DNA of 64,000 nucleotides, from NCBI RefSeq assembly GCF_002105155.1, contig NW_019028980.1, positions 992,001-1,056,000 on the forward strand, written 5' to 3'. Origin of the DNA: Lobosporangium transversale. Its lineage: Eukaryota. A program made the position numbers and the translations under genes. Of the stretch, positions 578 through 46,679 are shown in pieces (the stretch's first letter is position 1; each line of letters opens with the position of its first letter). A model generated the notes under the pieces. That model was given only the letters and a program-made list of their open reading frames with translations. It was not told the origin of the DNA and ran no database searches.

Positions 578-649
578 TGATCTACGCAGGGGTCGAACCT
601 GCAATCTCCTGATTCGTAGTCAGACGCCTTTCCATTGGGCCAGTAGACC
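578..649 (-). tRNA. tRNA-Arg, anticodon ACG, intronless
   Basis: Reverse complement GGTCTACTGGCCCAATGGAAAGGCGTCTGACTACGAATCAGGAGATTGCAGGTTCGACCCCTGCGTAGATCA folds as a cloverleaf: acceptor GGTCTAC/GTAGATC, anticodon arm TCTGA-CTACGAA-TCAGG, T-loop GGTTCGA. T-runs follow on the minus strand. Confidence 0.95.
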
Positions 650-753
650 GTTTTTGAACTTGATATACGTTGCTTATCGTGATTATGTTAAATGACAAGT
701 CTACCGATTAACATCACGTGAACTTATTTACAATAGCGACTTAAAGCTGTTGC

Positions 754-1477
754 TTAGGACCTACGCTTGACCCAGCCCAATGGCTGAGTAGTATACTCGT
801 CAGGGCACCCCCCTGTCTAGCCCAGGGGCCGGGTTCGAGTCCTGGTTAAGGCACATAAAGTGAAGCAAACATGTGCCAGGTCAGGGATTTGCTTGAGTTT
901 TTATACTTTCTCTCCGAGACAGCCTAGTGTTCTCCGCTAAGGCTAAGATCGTGGGTGCACTACCCTAAGTCGCCTGGCTGGCCACATGTCTTAGGTTTAT
1001 ATTCCACCCCCCAGCCGAACCAGCGGTACATCTGGCAGCACATCCCCCCCATCCACCCACTTGACTAGGACAGCGATGATCACAAAGTTTGACGGAGTCC
1101 AAAGTAGAAATTTCAGACCAATCCCGCAAGATTTGGGTCCACATGCCAGTGGATTTGATCGAATAGAAAAAAAATTAAAAGTCGTCCTTAGCTAGAGTCG
1201 GCACGCCAGCCTCCGCGGCTTTTCACGGGCGCAACAGGCCACATCGGAAGGATGGACTTCGAGTACCGATCACGGTGTACATTGGTAGAGAAAAACATGG
1301 ATACGAATTGGCTCTTCACAGCCATGCCGTGCGAACTTTGAGAGTTTCGCTTGTTTCATAGTTGAGGGCGATATCATTACTTTAGAGCGAGATTATGAAA
1401 TAAAATTCCTCACCTCTGTGGGTTCTTGTTAACAGGAAAAAAAAAAAAAAAAAAAATTAGGACCTACGCTTGACCCA
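754..1477. repeat. 21-bp target-site duplication (754-774 and 1457-1477)
   Basis: Exact direct repeat abutting the tRNA-like head and the poly(A) tail. Confidence 0.93.
775..1456 (+). mobile_element. tRNA-derived SINE-like retroposon (about 680 bp) with poly(A) tail
   Basis: Head 775-853 has an A-box-like TGGCTGAGTAG and a B-box GGTTCGAGTCC. AATAAA lies near 1399 and an A20 tail at 1437-1456. An identical 21-mer TTAGGACCTACGCTTGACCCA flanks it at 754-774 and 1457-1477. No long ORF inside. Confidence 0.88.
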
Positions 1478-2058
1478 TCGCAGATAAGGTTCTGTTGCAG
1501 AGCTTGTTAGGATAGCGGCGGTGGTCAACCGCGGAAAGGATGGGGGCGAATCCTTTCCTGTAACAGGATGTTATCGACGTTAAACATGGTGGTGAGCTGT
1601 GGCGATGGTTACGCGACATTTGAAGGGGCTTACCGAGGGAAGGTGACAAGACTTATGGCGACTGTAAAAGCGATTCTCTCCGGACGTTGGAGCATCAAGT
1701 ACATTCTAGACTAGATATTTTTTTGAGTTTATAGCGTTGTTCGTTTAGAGAAACAGATTGTAATAAAAAAAAGAAAAAGTGGCTTAAAGCGGTCGCTTTG
1801 ATCAACAAAATGGAGGTTGTTTTTTCTTGCACACAACAGGTCGAGTAGGAAAATAAATCCTACATGACCTCGTGGGACATTATCACAAAAAAAAAAAAAA
1901 AAAAAAAAAAGAGTTTGCACATAGTGTTTGCAGGAAAGAAGAGAAACTAAACCAAACATTAGCAGCGTATGGGTTTTTGATCAGCAGACATGGTTTCCGC
2001 GCAATAAGGAGGGGGCGCGTTTAAAAGTAGCAATGTTTTACATTTCGCCGCCTCACAC

Positions 2059-2089
<31 letters not shown>

Positions 2090-2693
2090 AAGAGGAGTCT
2101 GGTCTAGCAACCACAAGTCTCTTTCTCACATAGACTTTCCTCTGTCAATAAAAAAATATAAAGGAGAATAAGAACACGAGCATGTGCGATGGGGAAGTAT
2201 ATGAAGTTATCCATTTCTCGTTCCTCAAGTCATCAAGGCACATTTTCATATGGACTCTTGTCTCTAACAAAACGTTTTTGAAAAAAGACATACAGGATGG
2301 CTATACTGCAAACGGATTGATCTCGCTCGTTATTATTATACATGTGCATTAGCACGGAAAAAACGATTATGTAACAAAAATATATATATGTATATGCTAT
2401 AGTTGTATAAAAAAGGCTTCCTCGTCAGATAGCCTCTTGATGAAATGAGTAAAATGAATACAAAGAAAAAAGCAAAAAGTTAACAGGAACGACCCTTTTT
2501 TTTTTTTTTTTTTTTTTTTTTTCGCTTCCTTTTTGTTTTGTGAAGAGTCGAGCATAAAAGGAAAAAAAAAAAAAAAAAAAAAAAAATTGCGGTATATGCG
2601 CGATAGCAACGAATGGAATCTATAAGTGGATACAGAAAGCATAAAAAAAAAAAGCGACAGGTGTGTATACAGGAAAGTGACATGACCGAAGAA

Positions 2694-5600
2694 TTAACGG
2701 GGGTCGCGATCCCGAGAAGCTGAGTAATGAGCATCAGAGCGCGAATACGACACATGATGTGGCATTTCCTGTCCGTGACGGTCCACAGGTCTCCCGTCCA
2801 TACCGGAATGATGTGGCGTATATCGACCATTATTCGAGGATGGTCCACTTGAAGCAGATCCTGACGAACCTACCGCTTGAGATTGATGTGGTGAGTGGGG
2901 TGGAGGAGGACCACCTTGCTGTTGCTGCTGTGGTGCATAGCCGCCATACCGAAGTTGATGCTGCAAATGAGATATCTGCTGTTGCTGTTGCTGCATCTGA
3001 TGCTGGAGTTTCTCAACCATATACATCATGGAGTCTTGCTTCTCCAAATCCGATCGTCTGTACACGTCCAATTGTGACAGGTACTCTCGCATGATGTGTA
3101 GTTCAGTGAGAACATCCCTATACTGCTGGAAGGAAGGGGCAGACGTCATAGCATCGGGTACAGCCATGTCGCGAGAAGGTGGGGAAGGTTGAATAGGGCG
3201 ACCATGAGAGTCAACTGTGGGTCCTCTGCTAGAGTATCCGCTGCTATATCGATAGTTAGGCTCTTCTCTTTCGCGGTTATGCTGACCGTGGACAGGGATC
3301 TGCCGACCACTAGTGGGTGATGCAGGTCTTGTCCTATCTGAACGTGAGATATCCATAGCGTCATGCATACTCCTGCTACCAGTTCGTGCATGCTTTATGG
3401 GTCTTCTACCCTCTGTAGGCTCAGCAAAGTCGCCCTGGGAGTAGTGACGCGAGTGGCTGGGAGCATGCGGCTCCGCGCTGGGAGGTGTATGAACTGGAAG
3501 TGGGGATGATAGCGGTGTAGATTGCATTGCTAATCCTTGCTTAGGATTTTCAGGAGAACCGTTTGTTGGAGATTGATATGTTTTTGGCTCAGTTCCTTCA
3601 ACTTCCCAAGTGCGATTTGGATGCTGTCCATCTTTAATATTCCCATCTGCGTTTTGTACTGGTAGACTTCGTGTTCTGTCCGAAGAATTGCGGCTAGAAG
3701 GTCTGTTGGAGGGAGCAGAGGGAACCGGGTTGCGAGGACGGCCTCTCTTAGCAGGTGTGACCGGAGTAGATGAGGATCCAGAGGGGATAGGGGGTGCTGA
3801 AGTTAAGTTCGAAGGCGTTGTTGGTTGCGTAGACGGGGAAGGAAGTGCTGGAGCAGAGGGGGAGACGGGCGTAATAGTTGCGGGTTGAGTGCCTTCTTCC
3901 TGGTTTTTTGACGTTTTTTGTTGCTCTGTATCACTACGGGACTTCATGTCTTGATCCTCATCTTCCTCAAGCTCATCGTCTTCCTGAGGCTGGCTCTGAT
4001 CTTTGGATTCCATGAAGGTATCCTCCTGTTCATCAGAATCTGACATGCCTGATCCACTATCGTCATCACCCGAGTTACCCTCATCCAGAGATCCTCCTTG
4101 ACCTGACATTTTCATAAGATTGATAACTTGCTTGACAAGATCATCATTGGCTTCTTTCATGTCATCTGGAATGTTGCCCTTGTACATTCGCTCTCGTAGT
4201 TGATAGGGCTTAACCATCCTGTTCACTCTTCGAATACACTGACGGGCGTGGACCTTCATTCCAAGAGCATCACGCACATCTTCCCAGGCCTTTGCAACCT
4301 GGCCCACTTTCTGCGCAAAAGGATTTAGTCGGATGGTCTCAAGAAGAAGGCGTCTATCTGTATCTTCAGAACGATATCGGCGCTTTTTCTGCATCCTTTT
4401 GAGTGCCTGAGGCTGGTTCATCATATCAAAGAGCTGCTCCAACAGTTTCTTCTTTGTTGCTTGTTGCTCCTCCGTCCCTACTGGTCGGTCACGTCCAGCA
4501 ATGCTTGCCTGGATGATATTATCGAATCGTCGAGAGCAAGTTCTCGCTCTGATACCCTGCTCTCTAGAAATCATCTCCCATGCTTGGGTGGTCTTTCGGA
4601 TAGCGCAATTAAACGGATCATGTTGAAGGACACTGGTCAATAAGCTAATCTGAATATCAATAGGAAGAGGTCCTTTAGGGGTACCGCGAGCAGATTGGAT
4701 CTTGAAAGGCTCATCCTTCTTTTGTTGATGCTGTCCTGAGTTATAGTGTTGCTGTTGAGAATGATTAGCTCTGCCAAGCCCTGAATCTTCAGAACCGGGA
4801 TATCGAGGAGGTCGGGGGGCAAGTGGTGGTAGCCCATCAACAGGAGCAGAACCTGAATATGCGTGGTAATCTCTCGAATAATCGGCATAGGCTTGATGGT
4901 GAGGTTTTACAACATTCGGATCTGTGTATTGATAAGGTGTACCATGATATGGTTCACGTTCACGGTGTGGCATGTGATGCGATTTCGGATCGCTGATCTG
5001 GCCATACCGATACCGACTCTCATGGTCTGAATATCCATCGGAGTCTGAATTGTGTCGATGACGTTTGCCTTGATATGATTCTGACGAGTCATGGGACGGA
5101 GTCATGGTTGGATATGTAGATTCGGAGTAATTTCTCTGTAGTGACATATCTGGGTGTGGTGGGCGCATTGGATAATGTGGAGGCGAGCGAGGTCGCATAA
5201 CGGGTGCATGACGGGTAAACGATAAATGTCTATTGCTGGCAGAAGGCGATGCGGGGCGTGACCAAGCCGTAGAGGAATTATTGTAATAAGCTTCGTTGTG
5301 ATACGAGCTGTTGAATTGATGTGGGAAAATATGAATAATATTAGAACATGTATAATTTTATACTTCCGTCATGGGTAGCGTTTTAATTGATCATATCGGT
5401 AGAAACAAAAATGTCGACAAAAGAAACAAAACAAAAAAAAAAAAAAGACAAAAGACAAAATGGACTATGTGTATTACGAATAAGCTCTGGCGCTGATTGC
5501 TCAATTGTCCAGGCAACATCTGTGATCATAAACAAGCTGGTGGGATATAAATCGTTACCTTGAAGGCGGATGACGCTCGTGCTCACGAGTGTCCATGTAC

Positions 5601-6019
5601 ACATTATCCTTGGCTTGCGACTGTGGCCACGGGGCACGATGCTCATGCCCGGATGTACCATTGTATCCACGATGTTCATCCATGCGTGGTTGATGAGAAT
5701 CGCCATATGGCGGCTGAGTATTTGACCTGCCAGAGGGAGAGTGATGAGATACTGGAGATGATGGAGGATGCTGTTGACCGTCATTATTTGAAAGAGCCCG
5801 TCGATGACCAAGACCATATGTCTTATCCTGGTCAAGATCCTTGGATGTAGGTCCAGCTGGAGCGGAAGTGTGTGATGGAGCAGGTGAGGGACTAGTTGGA
5901 CCCATAGTTTTATTGGGGGACATGGCTGGCGAAGGCGTATGCGCCTGACCGGAATGCGTCATGTCGACTTGATCCGGTGGCGTATGTGGACGTGTAGCGA
6001 TAGTCGAATTAGAAGGCAT
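2694..6019 (-). CDS. Putative transcription factor with two Myb/SANT-like (trihelix-type) repeats, disordered regions and a C-terminal coiled coil; exons 6019-5559 and 5307-2694
   Basis: A GTAACG...CAG intron (5558-5308) joins the 154-aa and 834-aa ORFs in frame. Two related helical repeats: LLTSVLQHDPF...AWEMIS...ARTCSRRF and LLLETIRLNPF...AWEDVR...ARQCIRRV. Q-rich coiled coil near the C-terminus. Confidence 0.8.
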
Positions 6020-7589
6020 GCGGTTGAGGATTGGAGGAAGATGAACGACCAGGACTTTTTCAACAAGGTGTTAGGGAGAGAGCATATAAGAAAAAGAGAG
6101 AGGGTAAGAATTTCTCTGATAGAAAGTTAGACAGGAGTAAAGAGTGGGGAGTTGAAGGTTACGTCAAAGAAAAAGAAAAAAAAATTAAAAAAAAAAAAAG
6201 AGTGGCAGTGATAACTGTCAACTTCAAATGAAGCCGTGGCAAGTGGTATCAGTTATCGGAGCTGCGTCCAAAGGAAGTGCGACGTCAATTTAACGCTAAC
6301 CACGAGGCGCAGGAAGAAACAAAAAAGAAACCAAAAATTATGGGTTAGTGTGGGTCATATCGGGTATGATCAATTATGGGTTGTTTTCATAAATGAAGAT
6401 GGCCTCTCCTCCCTCCCTCCCTCTTGGACTTTTTCTTGGCAACCACGTAAAAAAAAAATAAAAATAAAAATAAAAAAAAGAAAGAAAGAAAGGGAAGGAA
6501 GGGAAAGAGGAAGAAGGATAAAGACAACAACTAGTCAGATCGGCCAACGTTCCCTCGCACAGAACACAGTACACACTACATCTGCCAGGGGAAAGAAGTT
6601 GAGTTGGGCCCAGATCCGGTCCGATTGCATAAATGGTTTGTTTAATCAGGCGTTAGCGCAAAAAGAGGAGTTCTATCCGAAATCCCAAGAGGGGATTGTT
6701 TCAATATTCTTCTTTTTGGAAAACCATTGAGTAAGAGCTATTTATCCGTCCAAGCTCGCCAGGGAAGACCATGTATGTGCCCTGAACACTTTGTTCAGTT
6801 GCTCACTATGTACCTCTATGAATCAGCGATTAATCTTTGTTTCCCGTGAAATATCGGGAGATCACAAAAAGAGATGAATAATACAACAATAATAATAGGG
6901 GTGATAAGTTTAGCTTTCAACCTTAGAAGGAAGTCAATGAACGAGGAATGACGATAAATAAACTTTCATCTTTAAGAGTATTGTATGGACATTTGGGAAA
7001 GAGAGAGTGAAAGAGAAACCACAAAAGGCTTAGCAATGAGCTGAGTGAAAGAAAGGTGTGAAAGATATGAAAAGGTGTGAAATGAAGGGAAAAGCGTGAT
7101 TGGCCCTGAGATTATGAACTAATTGTCAAACAACGATAAGTAAAATAATAACAAATAAATAAAAATTGACTGACGTTGTCTCAAAAAAAAAAAAAATAAA
7201 AAAAAAAATAAAAAAATTGGACGTATTGAAGGAGCCTGGTCCAAACAATCACAAAAAGAAAGGGAGTATACGCAATGTTACTGTTTGTTTGTCGCCACTT
7301 TTGAGGAGAAGGGAAGGTGAGAGTGGAAATGATCCACTTTTTGCAATTGCACTGGTTCTTGTCCAATCAAACATAGGGCGGCGATTGACTAAGCGGCGAC
7401 CAATCGTCACGGCGTTCCCGATCTCCCCAGCCAGAGCAATCTCTTCAATGACTACATCAATCTTTTGCTTGCTGTCTGTTTTATTGTTATTAAAGAATTC
7501 AATCCTTAAATCAAAAATTGTAGATCTGCTTGTCCATCCCATTCCTTACCCCTTTCGTCTCTTTTATTTTTCCTTTTCCTTTTCCTTTT

Positions 7590-29639: not shown

Positions 29640-30144
29640 TTCGTTTTAGTCGAGGTTAAAGAGGATGAGAAATGAGGTGAGGTAGAGCTAATTTTTTAAT
29701 TTTAATGATGGGAAAATTTCTGGTGTTTCTTTCCTCAATAAGGTTTAGTCAAACCAAACACAGAAATTTATGTGCATACAACAAAGAAGAGCATTGGCTT
29801 GAATGTACATGTACACCATTGGTCTTTGTTTTCATGCTTGACTTCTCTGACATCGGATGCTGTTCCGTAGCCTCATATCACCTTTCAAATAGAGAAATGC
29901 CTCGTAGAATAAAAATATGGTCTGGCAGTGATGATTTTGTATCTCTTTTTTACTTTCCCTCCCTTTTCCTTTGACCTTTTTCGATTCAGCGTGGTTCGGA
30001 GATGATCTGGCACCAACAAGATCTTCTGTAAATTCATATACGGCATTCCTCTTTAAACTTTTTGTGTTTCTTTTTGGAAAACCACTCAGAAGTTACTGTC
30101 GATTGAGCGATTGTGACATTTTGCTCTTTGACAATGTCTACATG

Positions 30145-30363
30145 TATTGTCCTCGTCATTTGGTCATGCACATATTGTAAAAATATATTGATTGAATTGG
30201 CCCCAGAAAAAGCGCGTCACATTGAATGGGATTTGTGTATTGAATCGGTGGCTGATTTTGGCCACCAACTCATTTAAGATTATTCAAAATTCTGAGCCGA
30301 CCAAATCAATTCAATAATTATATGTTTTTAGAATATGTGCATGACCAAATGACGAGGACAATA
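30145..30363. mobile_element. MITE with a 32-bp perfect inverted repeat including probable TA TSD (Tc1/mariner-like)
   Basis: TATTGTCCTCGTCATTTGGTCATGCACATATT (30145-30176) is the exact reverse complement of 30332-30363. Non-coding interior. Confidence 0.85.
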
Positions 30364-30603
30364 TATACTGTCAAGCAAATATATATATAATACTCAAGAA
30401 CACAAAGTAACGTTTGCTCTGAAAGAGCTTAAAGTGCACTTTAATTATTGCATCCATACTAGAACACAAAGAATATGTTTGTATTGTTGGATACAGGTTA
30501 GATATCTAGAAGATATCAGCCCTTCATGCCTCGACAAGTAGACCATGCGGCTTTTATTGTAAAAGTGAGATGAATAACGAAGAACGATGAGGGCGGGACA
30601 TCT

Positions 30604-33600
30604 TCACTCCATTAGATCGACATGCATGTTCTCCTCCTTATGATGCTGGTCATTATTGTCGATGCTGTCGTATGTGCCGCTTAGGATAAAATGTGCAACT
30701 TCACACTCATCACATTCGCTACATTTGCTGCATATGAATCGATATCCCTTAGTCACCTCACTTTTAGCGATCAATAATCTTGCTCTGGAACCGTCCTTCT
30801 TTGAGTTCGTATTCGAAACATCTCCTCCCAGCTCTTTAGCCTCTAATGGCATAGGCATTGTTGTGTTGATATCGTGGCTTACTTCAGGGGAAGTTGGACA
30901 CTCTGTTGGATCATCAACAGCTCCATATTGTTTCAAAAGCTTTCTGTTGGCTTCACTTAAGCCAGCTACGTCTCGAATGCTTGCTTCGGAGGCATTAAGA
31001 ATTGATTGCTTTGTGCTCCACTTCAAGCGGGTATGGCATTGGCCATCCTCACTCTTGGCAATCTGCCACATCCGAATAGAGCCGTCATCATGGCCTGTAA
31101 CCAGAAAACAGCCTTCCTCGGAAACATTCCAGACAAGAGCTTCAACGTAGCCTCCTACATATGGAATAATAGCCAAGCACTGGGCTGACTCTGGGTCCCA
31201 TAGTCGTACAGTCGTGTCAACACTACTTGAGGCAACATATTGGCCATCACATGAATAAGAAATGGCAGTTATACGTCCGGTATGCCCTTCAAGTACATGC
31301 AATATGTTGCCTGATTCAAGATCTACCATACTAATTGCCCCTTTTGCACTTCCAACTACCATCAGTTGGCTGGATGGTGAAAATGAGATCTTCCTTTGAG
31401 GCTTATAGAATTTTGTTTCATGACAGAACTGGCCTGTCTCTGCGCTCCATAGTTGCAGTTTCATAGAGTCCTGGATAAATGCTAGCTTTAGGCTGTTAGG
31501 AGTATAAACCAAATAAGAGGTACTATATCCCACGCCTTCTAACTCGTGCAGGAGATCTTCTGAGTGTGCTGTCCATATTCTGATCCTATTAGCTTCGTCA
31601 TAGGAAGCAATCTGGTGGCCACTAGGCGAGAACAGCACGCCTTCCACACGACTATCATGTCCCTGTAGAGTGCGTACAAGTAGTCCTGTTTGAGTGTTCC
31701 ACACACTCACGTTTCCGCTTTGATGACCACAGGCAATTAGGTGGCCAATGGGTGAAATATCAGAGGTCACGATGTCGCCGTCCTGATTTGGTGAATCTAG
31801 GGCGTAAACAACTTGACCCGATTCAGCATCCCAAAGATAAAGGTGCTGATCACCATTGAGGGTGCAAAAGGCAAGCAGTCGACCATCAGGTGTATACTTG
31901 ACATCGTTCGATCGGCACTGCAAAACATGAATACATTGTCCTGTTCGACTATCCCACACGCGCACTGTATTGTCATGACTGCATGAGGCTATGTGTTGTC
32001 CATCTGGTGAAAACCTTACTAAGGAAATTAGCTTTGTATGACCATATGAATGGTGGCTAGACTGCCGTGAATGTGCGTCCCACAGGCGTATCGTTCCATC
32101 TTTGCTGAATGATGCAATCTGATGACTGTTTGGCGAACACGCCACACCATATATAATACTGGAGTGACCATATAGTGTGTTGGTCAGTTGTCCTGAACGG
32201 GCATCCCAAAGCCGCACTGTATTGTCCCATGCACAAATGACTATCTGTTCTCCATTTGGCAAATATTTCAAGTCGATGATAGAATAGAAGTGATCCAAAA
32301 GAGTATGAATCATTTCTCCTGTTTGCATATTCCACTGAAATGCCGTCTTCCAGGAGAATGATGCGGCATGCTTCCCATCGGGAGAATATTGGACATCATT
32401 AGGAGGGAAGCTATGCTCTAATGCCCATTTCTTCTGACCAGAGCTTGCATCCCACACATCCAGCGAGTAACCGTAGTAGTCACGAGTGATGATTTCTTGG
32501 CTGTTAGGTGAATATACGATTTGTCTGACCTGAGACCCAGAGTCCCGGAGCATCAGTACCAACTTCCCTGATGACGTATCCCAAAGCCGTACCGTCTCGT
32601 CTACGCCTCCAGTTGCAATCTGCTTCCCGTCAGATGAATACACCACGTTTGTCACCTCACCAGTATGACCCTCTAATATGTATTGGACCACGCCAGTCCT
32701 GGTGTCCCATACATGCACTGATCCATTTTTACTGGCTGAAGCGAGGCGGCCGCCATCTGGCGAGTACACTGCATAGTTAACAATGTCTGTATGGCCCTTT
32801 AAGGTTTGAATTAATGCACCCGATGTTGTATCCAGCACATGAATTGCGCCCTTCCCATACCAAACGGCAATGTGTCGACTGTCTGGAGAGTAGATAAAGC
32901 TGTAGTTGCGCACATTGATCTCCAAAGTCATTCGCTTCTCCCATGTCAACGTATCATAGATGCTGATGTAACCATCGCTACTTTGCCTTTTGTTGATAGC
33001 TGCAACGAATGTCTTGCCATCAGTCGAATACGATCCTCTGAATACATATCCTCCTTCACGAAGTAGTGCCCATTCTCCGAACCGTACGCCTGCCATCTTT
33101 GCTCCACTCAGGTCTGCTTCTTGAAGCCAACACCTGCTAAGGTTGACGTTCCTCAAATCTGCTCTTTGTAGCTGAGCACAGTCAAATACTCCATGACTAA
33201 GATCTGCTCCTGGGATCTGGATATCTCGTAAGTCCGCCTCGATGAACGATTCGCCTGCTCGGACTAAGATCGTCATTGCATTCGCTGCTGCTGTCCGCCA
33301 TTTTTTATCACTCCTCGATAGCTCAACATACTCGTACAGCTGGCGCTTGAACTCGACTTCCATTCGAACACGATCTTTCAGGAACTCAAGGATAGATGGC
33401 TCGTTGACAAAGCTTCTCCAGACTAAGGGCGAGTTCTCATCTACCTTGACTAAATTTACTTCCTGCTCAACCATTTTAGTCTCTTCAGCCTCAAAGCTGT
33501 ATATGGAGCCAACACTGTGCCGGCGGCAAGTCTGTGTCGCTGCTACTTCTCTACTGATCGCTAACGCATTCGTCACTTCCTGTGGTTCAAATATCGCTCG

Positions 33601-36600
33601 CACCACACAATACTCTAGAATGGAGTGGTGAACAAATCGATACTGATTGCCTGTGCGACTCAGAGGCGATGCTTCTCGTAAGAGATCCTTCCTGCTCTCT
33701 CTGCTAAAATACTTCTCTTTCCATGTGTCCTTATGTTTAGATGGAGAGTATTCCACCACTGGGTTACCATCTTGATGCTTGTAGATCTCCACAGCTAAGT
33801 CTGTTAGGTACCTGACCCCATTCTGTGCGAAGCCTTCATCACACAGCGTTCGGAACATTCTCTTATCTGATGCTGATATCTCGCCTAGCCGCTTCTTGCC
33901 TCGTTCGAACCACAGCTCAACGAACTGGTCATACAGAGTGATGCGTTTAATCTGCTTTCGGGATATATTCTGATGCGGGTCTACCATCCGTGGCAGTACT
34001 TCCAGTGACATCGATAGTAAGAATGGGTTCCTTACAAGCTCTTGTAGGCTAGGAACCATCTTAAGTGCACGCCGGTAGTCCTCCACACCCCACAGTAGAT
34101 CCATAGTTGCAACATACTGTTCAATATAGTCATCGATCTGAGCCTCAGAGAATGGTACAATTACAGCCTCTTGGAATAACCCTACCTCTGCTTGGCGGTT
34201 GCGGTCCATAGGCTGGAAACGGTCTCGATAATCTGTCCCAAGATACTCGCTGCGACAACTAACCACCATCTGACACATCCACTCGCCAGGCTGGTTGAGA
34301 CGGTTGGTGACGTACAGATTGTTGGTCTGCATGGTCTCATCGTACCCATCACAGATCAGGATGAATGACCGAGCCATTTTCAGCTCCTTGATCTGTTCCT
34401 CGGTGAAATCATGCATTCGCAGTTGTTTAGCGACCATATCCTTGGTTGGATTATCGATGGATGGCAGGTTGATAAACAATGGGATTTGACCATGATTTTT
34501 CCGATACGCCTCCCAAAGAGTGCACTCTAGAGTTCGGTTGAATGTCGATTTGCCTACTCCTGAGTCGCCTTGGACAAGCATCACCTTCTGGTCACTATCC
34601 AGGAACTGCTTCACCTTATCCATCAGCAAGAATAGTTTGTCATTACTTGCTTGAGGGTTCGCTTTGGCATATTGTTGGATGTAGAAATACTTGTCATCTC
34701 TGGTCTCCATTCGCTGCCGCTTGAGTAAGCGCAGACTCTTCTCGACATCAGGCTTATTCTGCACACGGTCAAGTAGTGATGAGGATAAAGGTGGGGTCTG
34801 CGCGCCAATGAAGGGGTACTGGCTTACTGGCTCATCAGAACAATCCTTGTAGAGCTGTTGTTTGTTAGCGTCTCCATCTATAGCAAGATCTCTCAGGAGT
34901 GAATTTGCAGCTACAAATAAATGCATGTAGAACATAGTGTACTATTAGTCTCAGTATCCTCACTTCACAATTGAGTTGATGCCGAGGCCGCATATTTACT
35001 CACCTTGTAGGCCATCCGTTGACAGCGAAGCTAGTCCCTTCAGTATACTAACAATACATTGCTTGATCTCCACATGATGCCTCCAATCCTTGTCATTTTT
35101 GTACATCTCCCCAAGGAAAGCAACCGCATCTTGTCGAGTCTCCATAGTCCATTGTGTGTTAGCAGCAACCCGTCCCAGCCGCTGACACAATCCCCACTGG
35201 AATGCAAGCTCCTGTCGGCAAGGTGCCTCACACACAAGAATCTTGAACTTGGTGAGTTCGCCTGTCTGGAGAAATGCATCAGCTCCACGGAGTGCTGGAT
35301 ACCATGCAGTCTTGCGACTAAAGCCAAGTGCTTCTTCCATAATCTGCTTAAATGCCGCTCCGCTCTCGTATAATGGGATTGCATTCTCATACAAATCTGA
35401 CCCCACGTCAACAATATCTGCCGCAGATGGAAGTTGTTCCTGGATATCGCTTAGTTCATCCACGAAGGTATTGAGGTCCCAGTCTTTGACCGCACTCACT
35501 ACTCCAAATATCCCTCGTACCACTGCTGACGTACGCCGAAGCATGGCTTGCATAGGCGTTTCATCATCTGGAATATACAACAGAGCTTGGAAGGCGTAGG
35601 CTGCATGGTATACCAGATGAGGATCTGAACTATCTTTTAGTCCCTCCAAATAGGCTGCTAGTGGCTCATGAAGCTGTTCTCGCTTCAGACCCTTGACTTG
35701 ATTGTTAACCATGGCATCGAGCACGTGCGAAACTGCCACACACAGCCGATAGACGTGGCCGCTAGATTGCTCATGCGTTCCCTGTAAGCGAGAACTGAGG
35801 GCACTGAGGATGTTAACCAGATCATCAGAGTCGAGGTACTTGGGAGAAGCATGCTGCATCAGCTGAACTAATCCTTCCAGCAAGTGGGTCTCCAGCATGA
35901 TATTCTGACCGATTCCATTGACCAAGGTCATGAGTATTGTCCTATATTGGTCATAATCGAGAACTGGAGCCAGAGCCACAACCTCAGCAACAGTAGCCTC
36001 AGACTTAATATCATCGTGGATAAACAGTGTAATCACATCTGAAACCAAGTTGTGAAGTCGATCTTGTTCATCTTGGTCATCCAACCTGGCCAAACACCAT
36101 TCCTGTTCCTGGGCTGTGAGGTCATTTAGTGGTTGATGTGCAAAAGAAAGTAGGCTGAGACAGTAGACGAGCTGGTGGATATCGATAAGATGAGTATCTG
36201 GACGAGGCAGGTTGTACTTGAAGATCACTCGCGCTACATCATGGCGGAATATTTCTCTTGGAATGATTGCAACACTGTATGTTGTATTGGTTCTCTCTGC
36301 TTTAATTATCTCCTTCGGTCTATTGATACTGGTGCCACTGCATTCTTGGTTAGTATTGGTGTTGCTGTTGCATGATAGCTCTTGGCAGGTGATGTTGCTC
36401 CCTTGGACATAACCCCACTTCTCTGCCTTTCTATCACTTTTTTGTGCATCACTTGAGCGACCTAGGCGTTCGAACAAGCGAGCAATTTCAAAGTGGGCCG
36501 AAGCGATACTTTGATATAGCACCATATCTTCAAGGGAACCTGAAGAGACAAGGTCCCTCCTCTCCGACCGCTGGATTCGAGACAATGCAAAGTTTGCATC

Positions 36601-36732
36601 GAGGCACAGCTCCGTGAGGATATCGGGGTCATCATTCATTCTCTGAGTGTCCTCCATGTAAAGGTTGAAGAGTTTCAGCGCCTTTGATGGCGAGAGGACA
36701 CCTCGTGACGAAGTAAACCTAGTGCCAAGCAT
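30604..36732 (-). CDS. NLR-like STAND protein: helical/ARM-like N-terminus, NACHT, pentapeptide repeats, WD40 repeats; about 2011 aa; exons 36732-35004 and 34910-30604
   Basis: A phase-1 GTGAGT...TAG intron joins the 578-aa and 1443-aa ORFs. Walker A GDSGVGKS, Walker B LICDGYDE, NPFLL motif, A(D/N)L pentapeptides, many GH...WD repeats. Confidence 0.92.
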
Positions 36733-37431
36733 TTTTTTTTATTATTATTGTTTTTATTTTTTCGCCAGTACTCTATTGATTTTAATGAAAGAACAACCAT
36801 TTTGAATGGCAATATTAGAGAGTAGCTTATATTTAAATGGATAAATGCGTTTATACGGATCGTGAGTGTTTGCTGCATACAGCTATTTCCGAAAACGTCG
36901 ATATGTAAATGGTTGGCTAGGGAAATGCTTCTTTATGAAAGGGGTATTTAGTGCGATTCAAGAAAGGAAGGAGAAGAAAAGCAAAGGGAAGGTAGATGTG
37001 AAAGAAAGAGAGGAAGAGGATCGACAATTGCAAACAGGGCTTTGCGAAGTCGAAGAGCCCATTTGTGTTCTGTTTGTATTTTACCAAGCGAATAACCATT
37101 AAAAAATACCTTGACGAAATCCTCTAGCTCCAACTTTCGACTCAATCCAACAAAAAAAAAAAGCTCACTTTTCTCAATAGAAAAATCTGTGATCACAGAA
37201 TAAAAAAGGTTGGTCCCAAAAACATCGCAGTTTAGAGCTGTTCTTGGCCTTTTTTTGTTTTGCTTCTCTTTTCTCTAAATATTTGTAAACCAGCTGTAAA
37301 GATATACATGTATGACTTGAATTGTTGCCCGCTACCTAGACAACGAAAAGACTTTTTTTTTTTTTTTTTTTTTTTTTTCGATAACAAGGACTTTCAAGAA
37401 GAAAATAATGAAAAGATAGGAAAATGAAGGG

Positions 37432-40400
37432 CTAAGTTTGAATAGCTAATATACGGGAAGTCTTTTTTTGGTGGGACTCCTTCCTCAACTTCTCCAAAAA
37501 GCTTTTGTGCCGCTTAGAGCGTGGTCTGCCCTTTTGATTGCCCTTGACAGGGTTCTCTATGTAAGTGCTGTCTCTTCCTTCGATGATGGCCTCTTCTAGT
37601 TTGCTTAAGACTGCATCATAGACATCAGGATCATTTTCCACAGAATTGACTGGGCGCTTTGTCAGCGCTGTTAGAGCTGCATACTTCCGTTTTCTGGATA
37701 TTAGAGCCTGGTCTTCTGAGGGGACAGCGATTGGAGGTACGAAAACTCTTCTCAAATCGTCCATGTAAGTGATCGGTGGTGTCTCGCTTTCCACTTGATA
37801 ATGTGACATGGCATATTGGAATGCCTCTGTTGAAACATCAAGTTCAGGATCGTCTTGCAATGTGTCTCTAAACCATCGCCTTGGGATCAGGCTAATATGA
37901 TACCTACATCTCGGGGTAACTGTCGTCAAATGGAAAAAATGGCGGCACACAATTCCGGAATTTTGCAAGAGAAGACAAGAGCAGACGTAGGAACCGTCAT
38001 TGAGGACTACAAGCTGTTGCCGTTCCGCTCCTGTGTGGTCCAACATGTAGGTGACCTCGTATGCAAATGTGATCTGTTGTGTCCCGATTCTGGAAACAAA
38101 GGAATCTAGTGAGAACTTCCGGCGGTCCTGCCTTGCGCTCAGCTCAATGCGCTAATCGTGAGATGAAAAATAATAAATAAATATGTATATATTATATTTC
38201 TATATATATTTTATTTTTATTTTTTAAAACAAAATAAAAAATAAAGAAATCATCTCACCTCATTGGGCTCATGGCTTCCATTTCTGGAGAGTGGAGCAAG
38301 GAATTCGGCAGGCTCGCAGAGCTTCGAACGATAATAGAAGGACCGGATCATCTCCATAGCCATTTGGTTCCTAGCCGCAACACCAAGGAAGTGATTGTTC
38401 CTTTCGTAAACCGAATTAAATATTTGCCTTGCAACAGTAGAGACGGTGGGTCCATCGTTCTGATCCATTCTGTATAAAAGGTACTCTGAAGTCCGCTCTT
38501 GTGATGCAAGTACCTCCTCGATTTTATCGAATAGAGATACAAGCTCTGTCTTCCTGGAGAGGTTTTTCTTCAAGACTGCGTGGATCCCTTTGACTCTCTG
38601 TGTCGACGCCATTCCTGCTGTAAACTTCACGCCAATCCAAGCCCACGCCCACTTCGCACGCTTTTGGTAAAGCCTATTCAGGTAGGACCGCACCTTCTCG
38701 TCCTCCTCACCGTATACAGCGACCTCTTCTTCCCACCTTGTTTCGAATTCGTGTACAGTGATGGAATTTCTGACCCTCCAGAAAGAAGAGTAGAAGAGCT
38801 CCCATTCGTCACGCAGAGGGCTCCGAAGCTTCTTCTTAAGGTTCTCGCTCATGTGCCAGATACAGTTGAGAAGGATCGTATCGGCAAGTATGTCACGGCA
38901 GGCTGCCTCCATGGCTGGGTCATCATCCACAATTATCACACCGGGAGCCTTTCCGTCGCATGCTTCTAGTAAAGCACTCAATATCCATGCATAGTCCTCG
39001 GTTGTCTCGTTCAAAACTAAAGAGCTTGCCACAAGGCGGCTTCTGCCAGCGCTATCCACCACAACAAAGACGTTCAGGTACATGTTGAATCGGTTGGTGT
39101 TTGATGTGTTGTCATTCAACACAACATCTCGGTAGCGACCGTAACAGGATCGTTGAGAAGGCGACATCCAGAAAACCTTGCTGAGTCTATTTTTTTGATC
39201 TCGCTCTATTTTGAAGAACCAACCATTGTCTTGGCGAATTCTGTCCTCCAGCACTTTAACCAGCGCACTAGCTTCTGAATAGTCGCAGGCACACTTCTTG
39301 AGCGCCTTAACTTTTTGGATGGCATTGGATACTTGTCGACGATGGAACATCCCTCCAACGAAATCCGTCTGGAGGAGGTACATTATATTATCTAAGCTGA
39401 GGCCCCCTGCAGCATAGTGGCCTATCTTTCCTAGGACTTCCTGACTCAAGGGGTCGATGTGTACGCCGGCTTCTACTTCGCAAGCATGATTATGTTCGCG
39501 CTCTAGCGTGGTGATATGCCAGAGCGGAGCAATTATATTAGGGGACCTAATGGTAAGCTTGAAAGGGCATTGCTTACGTCCTGACTTTGACCTCCGTTGC
39601 ATAGATGGATCAGAAGTCTTGGAAGATTTACTTTTCCCTGAGTGCTTGCATAAAAAGACCACTATTTGTAATAAGAAGGAAGTTAGAGCTATAAATCTAA
39701 CAAGTAACAAAAAAAAACAAAAAAAAGACGTGTCTTTTACCACGGGGCCGTTCACTATAATTAGCCTGTCCAATACGCGCTCTGAACCCACTGCGTCTAG
39801 CCCACGTTTTGATTGCGGCCTCTGCTTCAGGAAAGCTGTCAAACACATAGTGGAAACGAGGCTCCCAATGAGCAATGTCCTTTGAGCCAGCCTCACTAGC
39901 TAAATTAGAGCATTGACGCTCTTCATCATCCTCTGTCTCCTCCCCGTTAGTATTCCTTTGACTATCCTCATCGGTATCGCTTAGGCGATAGCCTTCTCTG
40001 TCATAGTAGCCCCCAGTTTCGCTATCACTCTGGCTGCCATCACAACTACCACTTTGACTCTCACCCTCGACGTCCTTTTGTTGGCCACTTTCCTCATCTT
40101 GCCCGACTTCACTGCTGTCGCTTGAACCTTCCTTGGGGACCTCGGGGACCTCGGGGGGAGAAAGCTATAATGAAGGCCGTAATATGTCGATGGCTTCAGT
40201 GAACGGCATTTAGGCCCTCAGCGCCGAAAGGACTTAACATATCCAAAATGGAATAGTTATTTAGACTACTTACTGTGGAGTAGGCGGTTACTAACTCAAG
40301 CATGCGCATGCGATGTTCTACAGCACTCTGGGGCTCCCAGAGGCTTATGCTTGGGTTAACAGCATGCTCAATTGCATTGAGAGCAATTATTCCACATGAA

Positions 40401-41365
40401 CCGCTTGTTGATGGTTGCCGGGCGATACGAAACAACCCCATTCCTCTCTTCCATTTATTTTCTCCAATTTTGCAGGCCACCAGCCATTTCCTGATCCCAG
40501 ACTCTACAGTAATTGGGCAATTCATCGCAAGAGAGTCACCAAATGACAACTCCTGGTTGATGAAGTCGATCTGTACGGCTCCCCAATGATCTAAATGCTG
40601 CATGTGGACTACAGCGAAGGCCTTTTCGACTCGCCCACTTTCAAGCTCTTCTTTTTTCCAGAGAAATGACTTGTTGTATTTAGTGCTGCTCGTCCATTGC
40701 TGGATTCTTAATGGTGGGATGAAAATATACTGATTATTGGCTGTATAGTGCTCCGAAAAAAGGTCCAGGACAAGACGTATTGCTTCGTCATCGATGTATT
40801 GCTCGTTCCTGAAAAACAAGGCACTGCTCAAGTTGAGTGGCACATGAGTAGATGCTCTAAAGCTTAGTTGCATAATGTTTGGGGCATTGAGTAACTGGTC
40901 GCGGAACCAAACAGCAAATGGGTCTCTCGCAGAAGAGGCATTGTCCCCAATCCATTTCAGCATTTCACGGATGCCTCTAGCCATATCCATAGCTTCGAAC
41001 ACTATTGGGTCGAGAAGCTTGATTGTCGTTTTATCGAAATTACCGAAGCTACCGATCCTCACGGCCCAGGAGCCTTCATTTGTATGGGAGCGTGTTCTTG
41101 CCCCAGTATCAAGCTCGCCAATAAGGCGTTTAGCGTAAAGGAGGTTCTTGGCCGAGGGAATTGTTTGGAGAGTTGCGATTTCACTACAAGGAATGATTGA
41201 ATTCTCATCCTTCTTGCAAAAAATGCCCTCGATCGCGGCCTCACTGATCTCGGTAACGCTTGGGAAAGCCCAATTAAGCAGGTCCCGACCAGTCAAGGCT
41301 TCCCTCCACTCACGGCTATAGGGGGTCGATGGTCCGGAAGAAGGAGTTTGGTTGGCAGAAGTCAT
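37432..41365 (-). CDS. Mutator-like (MULE) transposase with an N-terminal Ulp1/C48 peptidase domain; predicted exons 41365-40274, 40164-39741, 39661-38259, 38151-37432 (about 1212 aa)
   Basis: Ulp1 motifs HW, GDSL and QPSTSGSCG. Acidic linker. FAR1-type domain (FDSFPEAEAAIKTWARRSGF...CKH...CPF...HNH). MULE core LNDNTSNTN, IIVDDD, CIWH. SWIM finger CSC...GIVCRH. Three GT-AG introns preserve frame. Confidence 0.82.
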
Positions 41366-41769
41366 GCTTCCCAAACTAAATTTAAGATATTAGATGAGCT
41401 GTACCGATACTTTCATTAACTTTCCATTATCAGCCTGTCTACACAGGTACGAAAATCGGAAGAAAAAGTTTCAGTATGTACTTAGGCAGTTATAGTTACT
41501 GGAAATAGGTGTAAAGCACGTTTTGTGAGGGAAGAATGATGGCTTTTAAAGCAAAATTTCGAAATCGCGGAGCTTGGTCCTCTCTGGTCCTGTACTTTTA
41601 TTAATGCTATTTTACAGGATCCTAAATAATACTGTTAATCCGGTTTAGGATCTCCTCCATCTTTTACTCATTAGGTCAAAACATCGTGTACCATTTTTGT
41701 CATTAATTTTTGACACTCAGCGTCATGATAGAGATGCACTGTAAACACTAATTCAGCATGCTTTGCTGC

Positions 41770-42175
41770 GTCGGATCCGGCGCTTGCAGCCTGTGCTCTG
41801 TACTATATCCTATTATATATCTTTCCTGTTGCATGTTCCCTAAAATTTACATCCGACGTCTGTACTCTGTGTCACATACCGAATCCGGCATCTGCAGTCT
41901 GTACTCTGCGTTACATTTACTATTCGTTTTCTCTTCCGTACCTTTCCTAAAATTTACATCCGGCACCTGTACTCTGTGTCGCACATCGGATCCGGCATCT
42001 GCAGTCTGTACTCTGTGTTGCATCTTACTATACGCTTTCTCGGTCGTATGTTCCTAAAATTTACATCCGGCGCCTGTACTCTGTGTCACACACCGAGTTT
42101 GGCATCTGCAGTCTGTACTCTATGGCACATCTTACTGTACGCTTTCCCTGCTGCATGCTCCCTTACGTTTATACC
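41770..42175. repeat. Tandem array, 107-bp period, about 3.8 copies
   Basis: CTAAAATTTACATCCG at 41840, 41947 and 42054. CTGTACTCT at 41860, 41899, 41967, 42006, 42074 and 42113. Confidence 0.93.
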
Positions 42176-45897: not shown

Positions 45898-45985
45898 TAA
45901 GGCCCTTGCCAAAAAGTCATAAACTGGATATATTTTATATTTTAAATTGAATAGAGTACACATCCTTTTCTTTACACAAAGAAAG
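45898..45985. mobile_element. Degenerate solo end of the 46461-46679 MITE family
   Basis: 33 of 39 bases match the MITE TIR, and similarity continues into TTTAAATTGAATAGA as in the MITE right end. Confidence 0.7.
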
Positions 45986-46460: not shown

Positions 46461-46679
46461 TAGAGTCCTCGCCAGAAAGTCATGAACTGGATATATTTTA
46501 AAATACTCAATTTGAATTATTATTTGCAAAAATACAATTTTCGTACGAAGCTTGAAAAGCACAATAGAAAAAAAAAAAAAAAATTCTCAAAATTCTTGAT
46601 GTCCAAAAATGGAAGTATTCTATTCAATTTAAATGCCTGAAAAATATATCCAGTTCATGACTTTCTGGCGAGGACTCTA
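46461..46679. mobile_element. MITE with a 39-bp perfect inverted repeat including probable TA TSD
   Basis: TAGAGTCCTCGCCAGAAAGTCATGAACTGGATATATTTT (46461-46499) is the exact reverse complement of 46641-46679. Confidence 0.88.

Follow-up and report, generated by a model that had tools for sequence, protein, structure and literature searches.

The DNA analysed here, a 64,000-nucleotide (64-kb) stretch that we refer to as the window, contains at 754-1477 an inserted element that we interpret as a young, multi-copy and likely tRNA-derived SINE of Mortierellaceae, likely copied by a LINE and likely steered to sites on the upstream side of tRNA genes, ~85-190 nt away and in head-to-head orientation. 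That the element is a SINE we consider highly probable, and it is referred to as such below. That its insertions are targeted upstream of tRNA genes appears probable, and this targeting is likely seen in two Mortierellaceae hosts. The interpretation as a whole is put forward a shade more cautiously than the targeting. An initial annotation of the locus had described the anatomy of the element correctly and had missed the neighbouring tRNA gene and an older, nested insertion, which hold most of the interest.

Results

Anatomy of the element

The SINE comprises the following features, all on the plus strand.

754..774, +: left target-site duplication (TSD) of the SINE, which at the same time forms the start of the older element (exact 21-bp match)
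775..853, +: tRNA-like head of the SINE (folding, Rfam and B-box scans; the majority contig of run X3 starts at ~774)
781..791, +: A-box-like motif (10/11 of the A-box consensus)
832..842, +: perfect B-box within a T-arm-like stem-loop (pattern scan, folding)
854..1436, +: non-coding body of the SINE (no Pfam match; contig depth 264-343 vs 4-10 for single-copy flanks)
898..902, +: T5 run in the body, possible leaky Pol III terminator (sequence; unchanged in the majority contigs)
1229..1404, +: 3' region partly common to other repeat families, candidate partner-LINE tail (contig matches)
1399..1404, +: AATAAA (sequence)
1437..1456, +: A20 tail (sequence)
1457..1477, +: right TSD of the SINE (exact match to 754-774)

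The perfect TSD reported initially is confirmed: the sequences at 754-774 and 1457-1477 agree at every position over a length of exactly 21 bp, the boundary with the element being ambiguous by 1 nt (A774). This TSD is the sole exact complex 21-mer repeat on the plus strand of the 64 kb, aside from one 107-bp tandem array, and it is also the one case in the window of a complex TSD directly behind an A-run, the other match being a low-complexity A-rich 14-mer. The A20 tail and the AATAAA signal are likewise present, at 1437-1456 and at 1399, 32 nt before the tail. The window holds an unusually high density of A/T homopolymers (41 runs of at least 18 nt in 64 kb); because A-runs are so abundant, the tail is weak evidence unless it is paired with a TSD.

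The proposed A/B-box head holds at the level of sequence. The pattern used finds one B-box in the window, a perfect one at 832, and 51 nt upstream of it stands an A-box-like 11-mer (781-791) that matches, as judged by eye, the A-box consensus at 10 of 11 positions; neither ARAGORN nor the Rfam tRNA model calls a tRNA in the head. Its best Rfam match is to the tRNA-like mascRNA family (19 bits, E 0.36), and its alignment to the neighbouring tRNA-Arg is marginal, with 23 of 500 shuffles scoring as well. An anticodon-like (~810-828) and a T-like (829-845) stem-loop fold in the head, with a z-score of -1.2 that is not significant alone.

The body, initially described as ~600 nt of unique sequence, measures 583 nt (854-1436); it is unique within the window but repeated in the genome. 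The element as a whole is short (682 nt including the tail) and non-coding, without a Pfam match in six-frame translation, and the body matches no ribozyme or other Rfam RNA family. Its ends carry no terminal repeat except the 21-bp TSD. A conserved 3' stem-loop was considered and is unsupported (z 0.25 and -1.2). Judging from its sequence, the T5 run at 898-902 could stop Pol III at +124.

Host, data and scope

Among 30 homologues of a protein encoded in the window, those with a named source are from Mortierellaceae, bar one from Calcarisporiella at 34%. Copy numbers and junctions were assessed from public sequencing contigs aligned to the window, with their depth compared with that of single-copy flank contigs. 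Runs X5 and X8 are of a kind guessed to be RNA, and X6 is a small, noisy run. Run X9, which has the same species label, differs only by C>T and G>A changes, as in a bisulfite library, and is thus uninformative on an empty site. In X8, from a second organism (B), one exact 149-nt piece of the element occurs at depth 3.7; this is perhaps carry-over and was not counted as a relative. Exact element patterns had no match in viral contigs, metagenomes or prokaryote genomes.

Copy number and age

Contigs of the element reach depths of 289-343 in X3 and 264-295 in X4, compared with depths of 10.1 and 8.8 for the long contig of the single-copy flank. In the three DNA samples X1, X3 and X4 this amounts to 29-34 times the single-copy depth, i.e., ~30 near-identical copies, a number that rises to as many as ~75 if the shallower right-flank contig is used as the yardstick. 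In X5, whose kind is only guessed to be RNA, element contigs are found at depths of 2300-7300, yet positions 300-527 are uncovered. Most aligned element contigs are 95-100% alike, and the dominant ones differ from the window copy by few substitutions and by homopolymer gaps; some single-copy variants (91-94%) have internal deletions. This makes the family a young one that includes some older members.

The initial annotation had considered that the element might be single-copy and lack a related tail; we find instead ~30 copies and a 3' region common to other repeats. Its proposal of LINE-type target-primed retrotransposition is the best reading of a non-coding element whose many copies are nearly identical and which combines a head of Pol III type with an A tail and a TSD. 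The exact TSD and the near-identical copies also bear out its view that the insertion is recent and the SINE young.

No empty allele was seen in X1-X4, which appear to carry the insertion and may be one strain. Their contigs extend across the right junction by 28-36 letters before 1466, judging from record offsets. No listed contig spans the left junction, positions 699-755 being uncovered in X1, X3, X4 and X5. An assembly artefact is disfavored by the right junction in the contigs, and two nested pairs of TSDs would be hard to obtain by misassembly. In single contigs of X6, element positions 921 and 1338 are immediately preceded by a poly(A) run, which would fit the insertion of newer elements into or beside truncated copies.

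A tRNA gene and an older retroposon at the same locus

The SINE shares its locus with a tRNA gene and with an older insertion.

578..649, -: tRNA-Arg(ACG) gene, 5' end toward the insertions, proposed targeting landmark (ARAGORN; Rfam 56.5 bits)
735..755, +: left copy of the older retroposon's decayed TSD (17/21 identical to 1778-1798; starts 86 nt upstream of the tRNA)
1478..1777, +: remainder of the older, 5'-truncated, A-tailed retroposon, with the SINE in its 5' edge (contig pattern)
1778..1798, +: right copy of the older retroposon's decayed TSD (match to 735-755)

The TSD of the SINE lies 105-125 nt upstream of the 5' end of the tRNA-Arg(ACG) gene, of which depth indicates 8-10 copies in the genome, and the SINE itself starts at 126 nt. 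Because the gene is on the minus strand, the two are head to head. The score of the older TSD was reached by 0 of 3000 control stretches. Up to 13 contigs cover 1474-1772 at ~80% identity; their upstream continuation is absent from the window, and their flanks differ after 1772. Differing upstream sequence combined with a common end and differing flanks is what a 5'-truncated retroposon with an A tail shows. In the paralogues of this repeat, as far as the loose ends of the contigs show, sequence similar to the left TSD of the SINE precedes 1479. The nested TSD pairs thus record two retroposition events of very different ages, 19 nt apart and in the same orientation, at one tRNA gene.

Considered as the end of a LINE ORF2, the older repeat gave no Pfam match, and its 67-codon open frame matched only four unrelated repetitive proteins. 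The alignment of the SINE body with the older repeat is no better than with shuffled sequence (98/500).

Insertions at other tRNA-Arg genes

In a 551-nt contig of X5, the head of the SINE is joined, in the same orientation as in the window, to a tRNA-Arg gene whose downstream flank is a different one. The spacer between tRNA and SINE is 162 nt (551-353-36), provided that the contig ends with the 36 matching letters. In X2, a DNA run, a tRNA-Arg gene is followed by a loose end of 162 letters. From these two contigs, one of them from a run whose kind is guessed, we infer that a second tRNA-Arg gene of the host probably carries a SINE ~162 nt upstream. With random insertion of 30-50 copies into 37 Mb, the chance that a second of the 8-10 Arg genes would have a SINE within 200 nt is ~0.001. 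These two are the copies, out of ~30, that have been placed relative to tRNA genes.

A scan of metagenomes with the tRNA-Arg(ACG), which sampled Arg(ACG) genes only, yielded 29 loci. In two of these (L003 and L010), a TSD-flanked, A-tailed fragment lies upstream of the tRNA-Arg gene in the same orientation, with the tail pointing away from the gene. L003 contains a 41-nt fragment (5262-5302) followed by A11, with an exact 18-bp TSD (5244-5261/5314-5331) 95-112 nt upstream of the gene; L010 contains a 27-nt fragment (922-948) followed by A19, with a 16-bp TSD (one mismatch; 906-921/968-983) 175-190 nt upstream. The last 27 nt of the two fragments are identical, and their flanks are unlike. Both loci belong to one record set, in which they are 2 of 7; outside it the count is 0 of 22, so that 27 of the 29 loci are without such an insertion. 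A gene next to L010 is 98% identical to a Benniella protein, and the host thus differs from that of the window. The protein neighbouring L003 matched only itself, and the host of this locus was assigned by its record set and its identical tRNA. The L003 fragment aligns to the last 40 nt of the SINE with a score reached by 6 of 2000 shuffles; this score of 62 is not outstanding once all loci and the window are scanned, the background then reaching up to 86. The L003 tail had no match in prokaryote genomes.

Both non-tandem TSD-plus-A-tail matches in the 98.8 kb scanned fall within 300-nt divergent upstream zones, for which the chance is 0.002, and the strict scan found no such insert in the convergent or downstream zones of the metagenome loci. 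A TSD-like match in L009 was not counted, as it proved to be a tandem repeat lying 3.7 kb downstream. A relaxed scan returned 4 divergent-upstream and 0 convergent-upstream loci, and 3 and 0 downstream loci; the extra ones are probably due to chance. All five placed insertions, one of them inferred, are upstream of and head to head with the tRNA gene (chance 0.03); the SINE and the older element, being at one locus, are not fully independent. The TSDs start 86, 95, 105 and 175 nt upstream of the tRNA, i.e., the distance varies by ~90 nt. In L008 (5709-6064) and L022 (826-1124), we also observed tRNA-Leu(AAG) and tRNA-Arg(ACG) genes head to head, ~140-200 nt apart.

A motif in the target sites

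The three young TSDs have in common the motif CCTA-N1-2-GCT, 4-7 nt in, as did 27 of 20000 random triples; the motif was defined after seeing the three sites. The left copy of the older TSD has it with one mismatch at a similar offset, a match found afterwards that occurs in 0.9-2% of random 21-mers; the right copy is without it. In the window, the motif occurs at 8 other places, at none of which a TSD-flanked insertion was found, and it is therefore insufficient by itself. A preference for this motif, to which four sites point by their sequence, may serve as a lead.

Candidate partner LINE and proposed mechanism

As initially proposed, a LINE may share the 3' end of the SINE: other repeats have 1229-1275 or 1300-1374 in common with it, but no reverse transcriptase was recovered. 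Contigs matching these segments run on upstream in other sequence, one of them for at least 1269 nt, of which at most 30 letters are visible, and are candidates for the partner LINE. Neither the 124 ORFs of the metagenome loci nor the open frame of the older repeat yielded a reverse transcriptase or an endonuclease. An L1-type partner is suggested by the combination of long TSDs and an A tail.

In the mechanism that we propose, Pol III would transcribe the SINE from its A and B boxes, reading past the T5 run in some transcripts, and the RNA would be polyadenylated or carry its own A tail. The ORF2 protein of the partner LINE would bind the shared 3' region, nick the target and prime reverse transcription, giving TSDs of 16-21 bp. 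The Pol III factors on the tRNA gene (TFIIIB/TFIIIC) would probably serve as the tether for the retrotransposition particle, as is reported for Dictyostelium TRE5-A. Tethering would set the side and the orientation, and a local preference for CCTA-N1-2-GCT may pick the nick within a zone of ~90 nt. The transcription and target-priming steps draw on established knowledge of SINEs and LINEs, and the tethering on the analogy with TRE5-A.

Other features of the window

The window contains further repeats and genes. An ORF at 38250-39899 (-) resembles a MULE/FAR1 transposase (Pfam MULE, E 1e-17), with ORF pieces at 37432-38151 and 40196-41389; this region is probably a Mutator-type transposon. At 46461-46679 a perfect 39-bp inverted repeat flanks a MITE-like unit of 219 bp, with a third, diverged copy of the arm at 45904-45959; no TSD of 7-11 bp was found for this unit. 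A further MITE-like structure (30142-30366, 225 bp in total) has a 60-bp inverted repeat of 90% identity, again with no TSD found. A tandem array at 41839-42146 consists of 2.9 copies of a 107-bp unit that are 85% alike. The large gene at 30604-36738 (-) encodes ARM-like and WD40 repeats and is presumably of the NACHT/WD40 type, expanded in Mortierellaceae.

Discussion

Alternative explanations

The SINE might be an ordinary, untargeted one that inserts at random or favours open, gene-free DNA, the copies upstream of tRNA genes being merely those that survive selection. Most copies are unplaced, 27 of 29 tRNA-Arg loci of relatives are empty and the distances vary by ~90 nt, all of which this explanation accommodates. 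A passive bias of this kind, however, fails to explain why five of five insertions are head to head with the gene, and it leaves unexplained two insertions 19 nt apart at one gene, the occupation of 2 of 8-10 Arg genes by a family of only ~30 genomic copies, and a strict scan without TSD-plus-A-tail inserts in convergent or downstream zones. We therefore regard it as improbable. Somewhat less likely still is sequence-specific targeting, in which the endonuclease of the partner LINE cuts at a short motif or within an older transposon and the link to the tRNA gene is secondary. The TSDs do share CCTA-N1-2-GCT at offsets 4-7, and the SINE did land in an older repeat, for which SINEU-3/Tx1-Mar offers a precedent in the available part of its description (PMC4494074). 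The motif is nevertheless found at 8 other places in the window without a TSD-flanked insertion, and the flanks of L003 and L010 are alike only within the insert; these are therefore not copies of one target repeat.

Least probable among the alternatives, and quite unlikely, is that the element is a non-autonomous derivative of a LINE, of which TRE5-A.2 is an example, or else arose by retrocopying of a cellular Pol III RNA, the likeness of its head to a tRNA being no more than a resemblance. Rfam and ARAGORN do not score a tRNA there, the alignment to tRNA-Arg is marginal (23/500 shuffles), a T5 run stands at 898-902, and AATAAA is at a distance like that of Pol II signals. Set against this are a perfect B-box in a T-arm, preceded by an anticodon-like arm and, 51 nt upstream, by an A-box-like motif; a family 5' end that coincides with the head; and the lack of any coding remnant in the element or of an Rfam family for it. 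A tRNA-derived SINE steered to tRNA genes thus remains our preferred reading.

Comparison with known systems

Fungal SINEs related to tRNAs are known (MgSINE, Mgsr1, Foxy, Egr1, Nrs1, SINE2-1_BG and AfuSINE2), those listed in the accessible portion of PMC5063351 being from ascomycetes, so the class is not new. Compared by description only, the present SINE resembles them in its length of some hundreds of nt, its tens of copies, its tRNA-related head and its TSD, and differs in its Mortierellaceae host and in a TSD of 21 bp, as against 4-14 bp in AfuSINE2; that portion of the source mentions no targeting of tRNA genes (PMC5063351).

The closest parallels in targeting are the L1-clade elements TRE5, NLTR-A and NLTR-B of dictyostelids, which likewise insert upstream of tRNA genes, in opposite orientation to them, and have an A tail (PMC5911963, accessible sections). 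According to the same sections, the ORF1 protein of TRE5-A contacts TFIIIB, and targeting requires the B-box (PMC5911963). The distance upstream is 40-54 bp for TRE5 and 39-64 bp for NLTR-B, whereas the insertions described here are found at 86-175 nt; and these elements are LINEs with two or three ORFs, in contrast to a non-coding fungal SINE with its own A and B boxes (PMC5911963). The present element would thus work like TRE5 but is not a member of that group, having no ORFs and a wider and more distant window of insertion, and for the likeness convergence is as likely as kinship. In Table 1 of this 2018 review, as far as its text is available, the non-LTR elements targeted to tRNA genes are dictyostelid only, and the fungal entries are all LTR elements (PMC5911963). 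Among the latter, Ty1-4, Tj1, Tca8, Tyl3, Ylt1 and Tyl6 are similar in inserting upstream of Pol III genes, and differ in having LTRs and an integrase, the SINE being without LTRs and having an A tail and a long TSD (PMC5911963, same sections).

In SINEU-3 (Tx1-Mar), as described in the available text, a SINE inherits the target preference of its partner LINE and inserts repeatedly at one target, but the host is crocodilian, the head is derived from snRNA and the target is Mariner transposon sequence (PMC4494074). The Helenus TRIMs are fungal non-autonomous retroelements with tRNA-like sequence; according to the part of PMC10886601 available, they have LTRs and, in fungi, 5-bp TSDs, compared with the A tail and 21-bp TSD of the SINE. 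The portions of PMC5006619, PMC7175516 and PMC6416283 at hand describe no targeting of tRNA genes by a fungal non-LTR element or SINE. A literature search, with most subscription journals and Repbase Reports outside its reach, gave no report of a Mortierellaceae SINE or of any SINE targeted upstream of tRNA genes.

Significance

A new fungal SINE family would in itself be a modest finding; what matters is the targeting of tRNA genes. With slightly more confidence than doubt, we suggest that a non-LTR lineage of Mortierellaceae targets the upstream flanks of tRNA genes, as a counterpart of TRE5, and that the SINE rides on it, most of its copies being at tRNA genes. If the targeting is true, it would be another independent invention of tRNA-gene targeting, in a fungal family that can be cultured and with an element that was recently active. 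One could then test how an enzyme of target-primed reverse transcription is tethered to Pol III factors, and whether position-specific targeting is something that a SINE can acquire in trans. The finding would further hint at a natural system for safe-harbour integration in oleaginous fungi, and the SINE, itself a parasite of Pol III, would be one that settles next to other genes transcribed by this polymerase.
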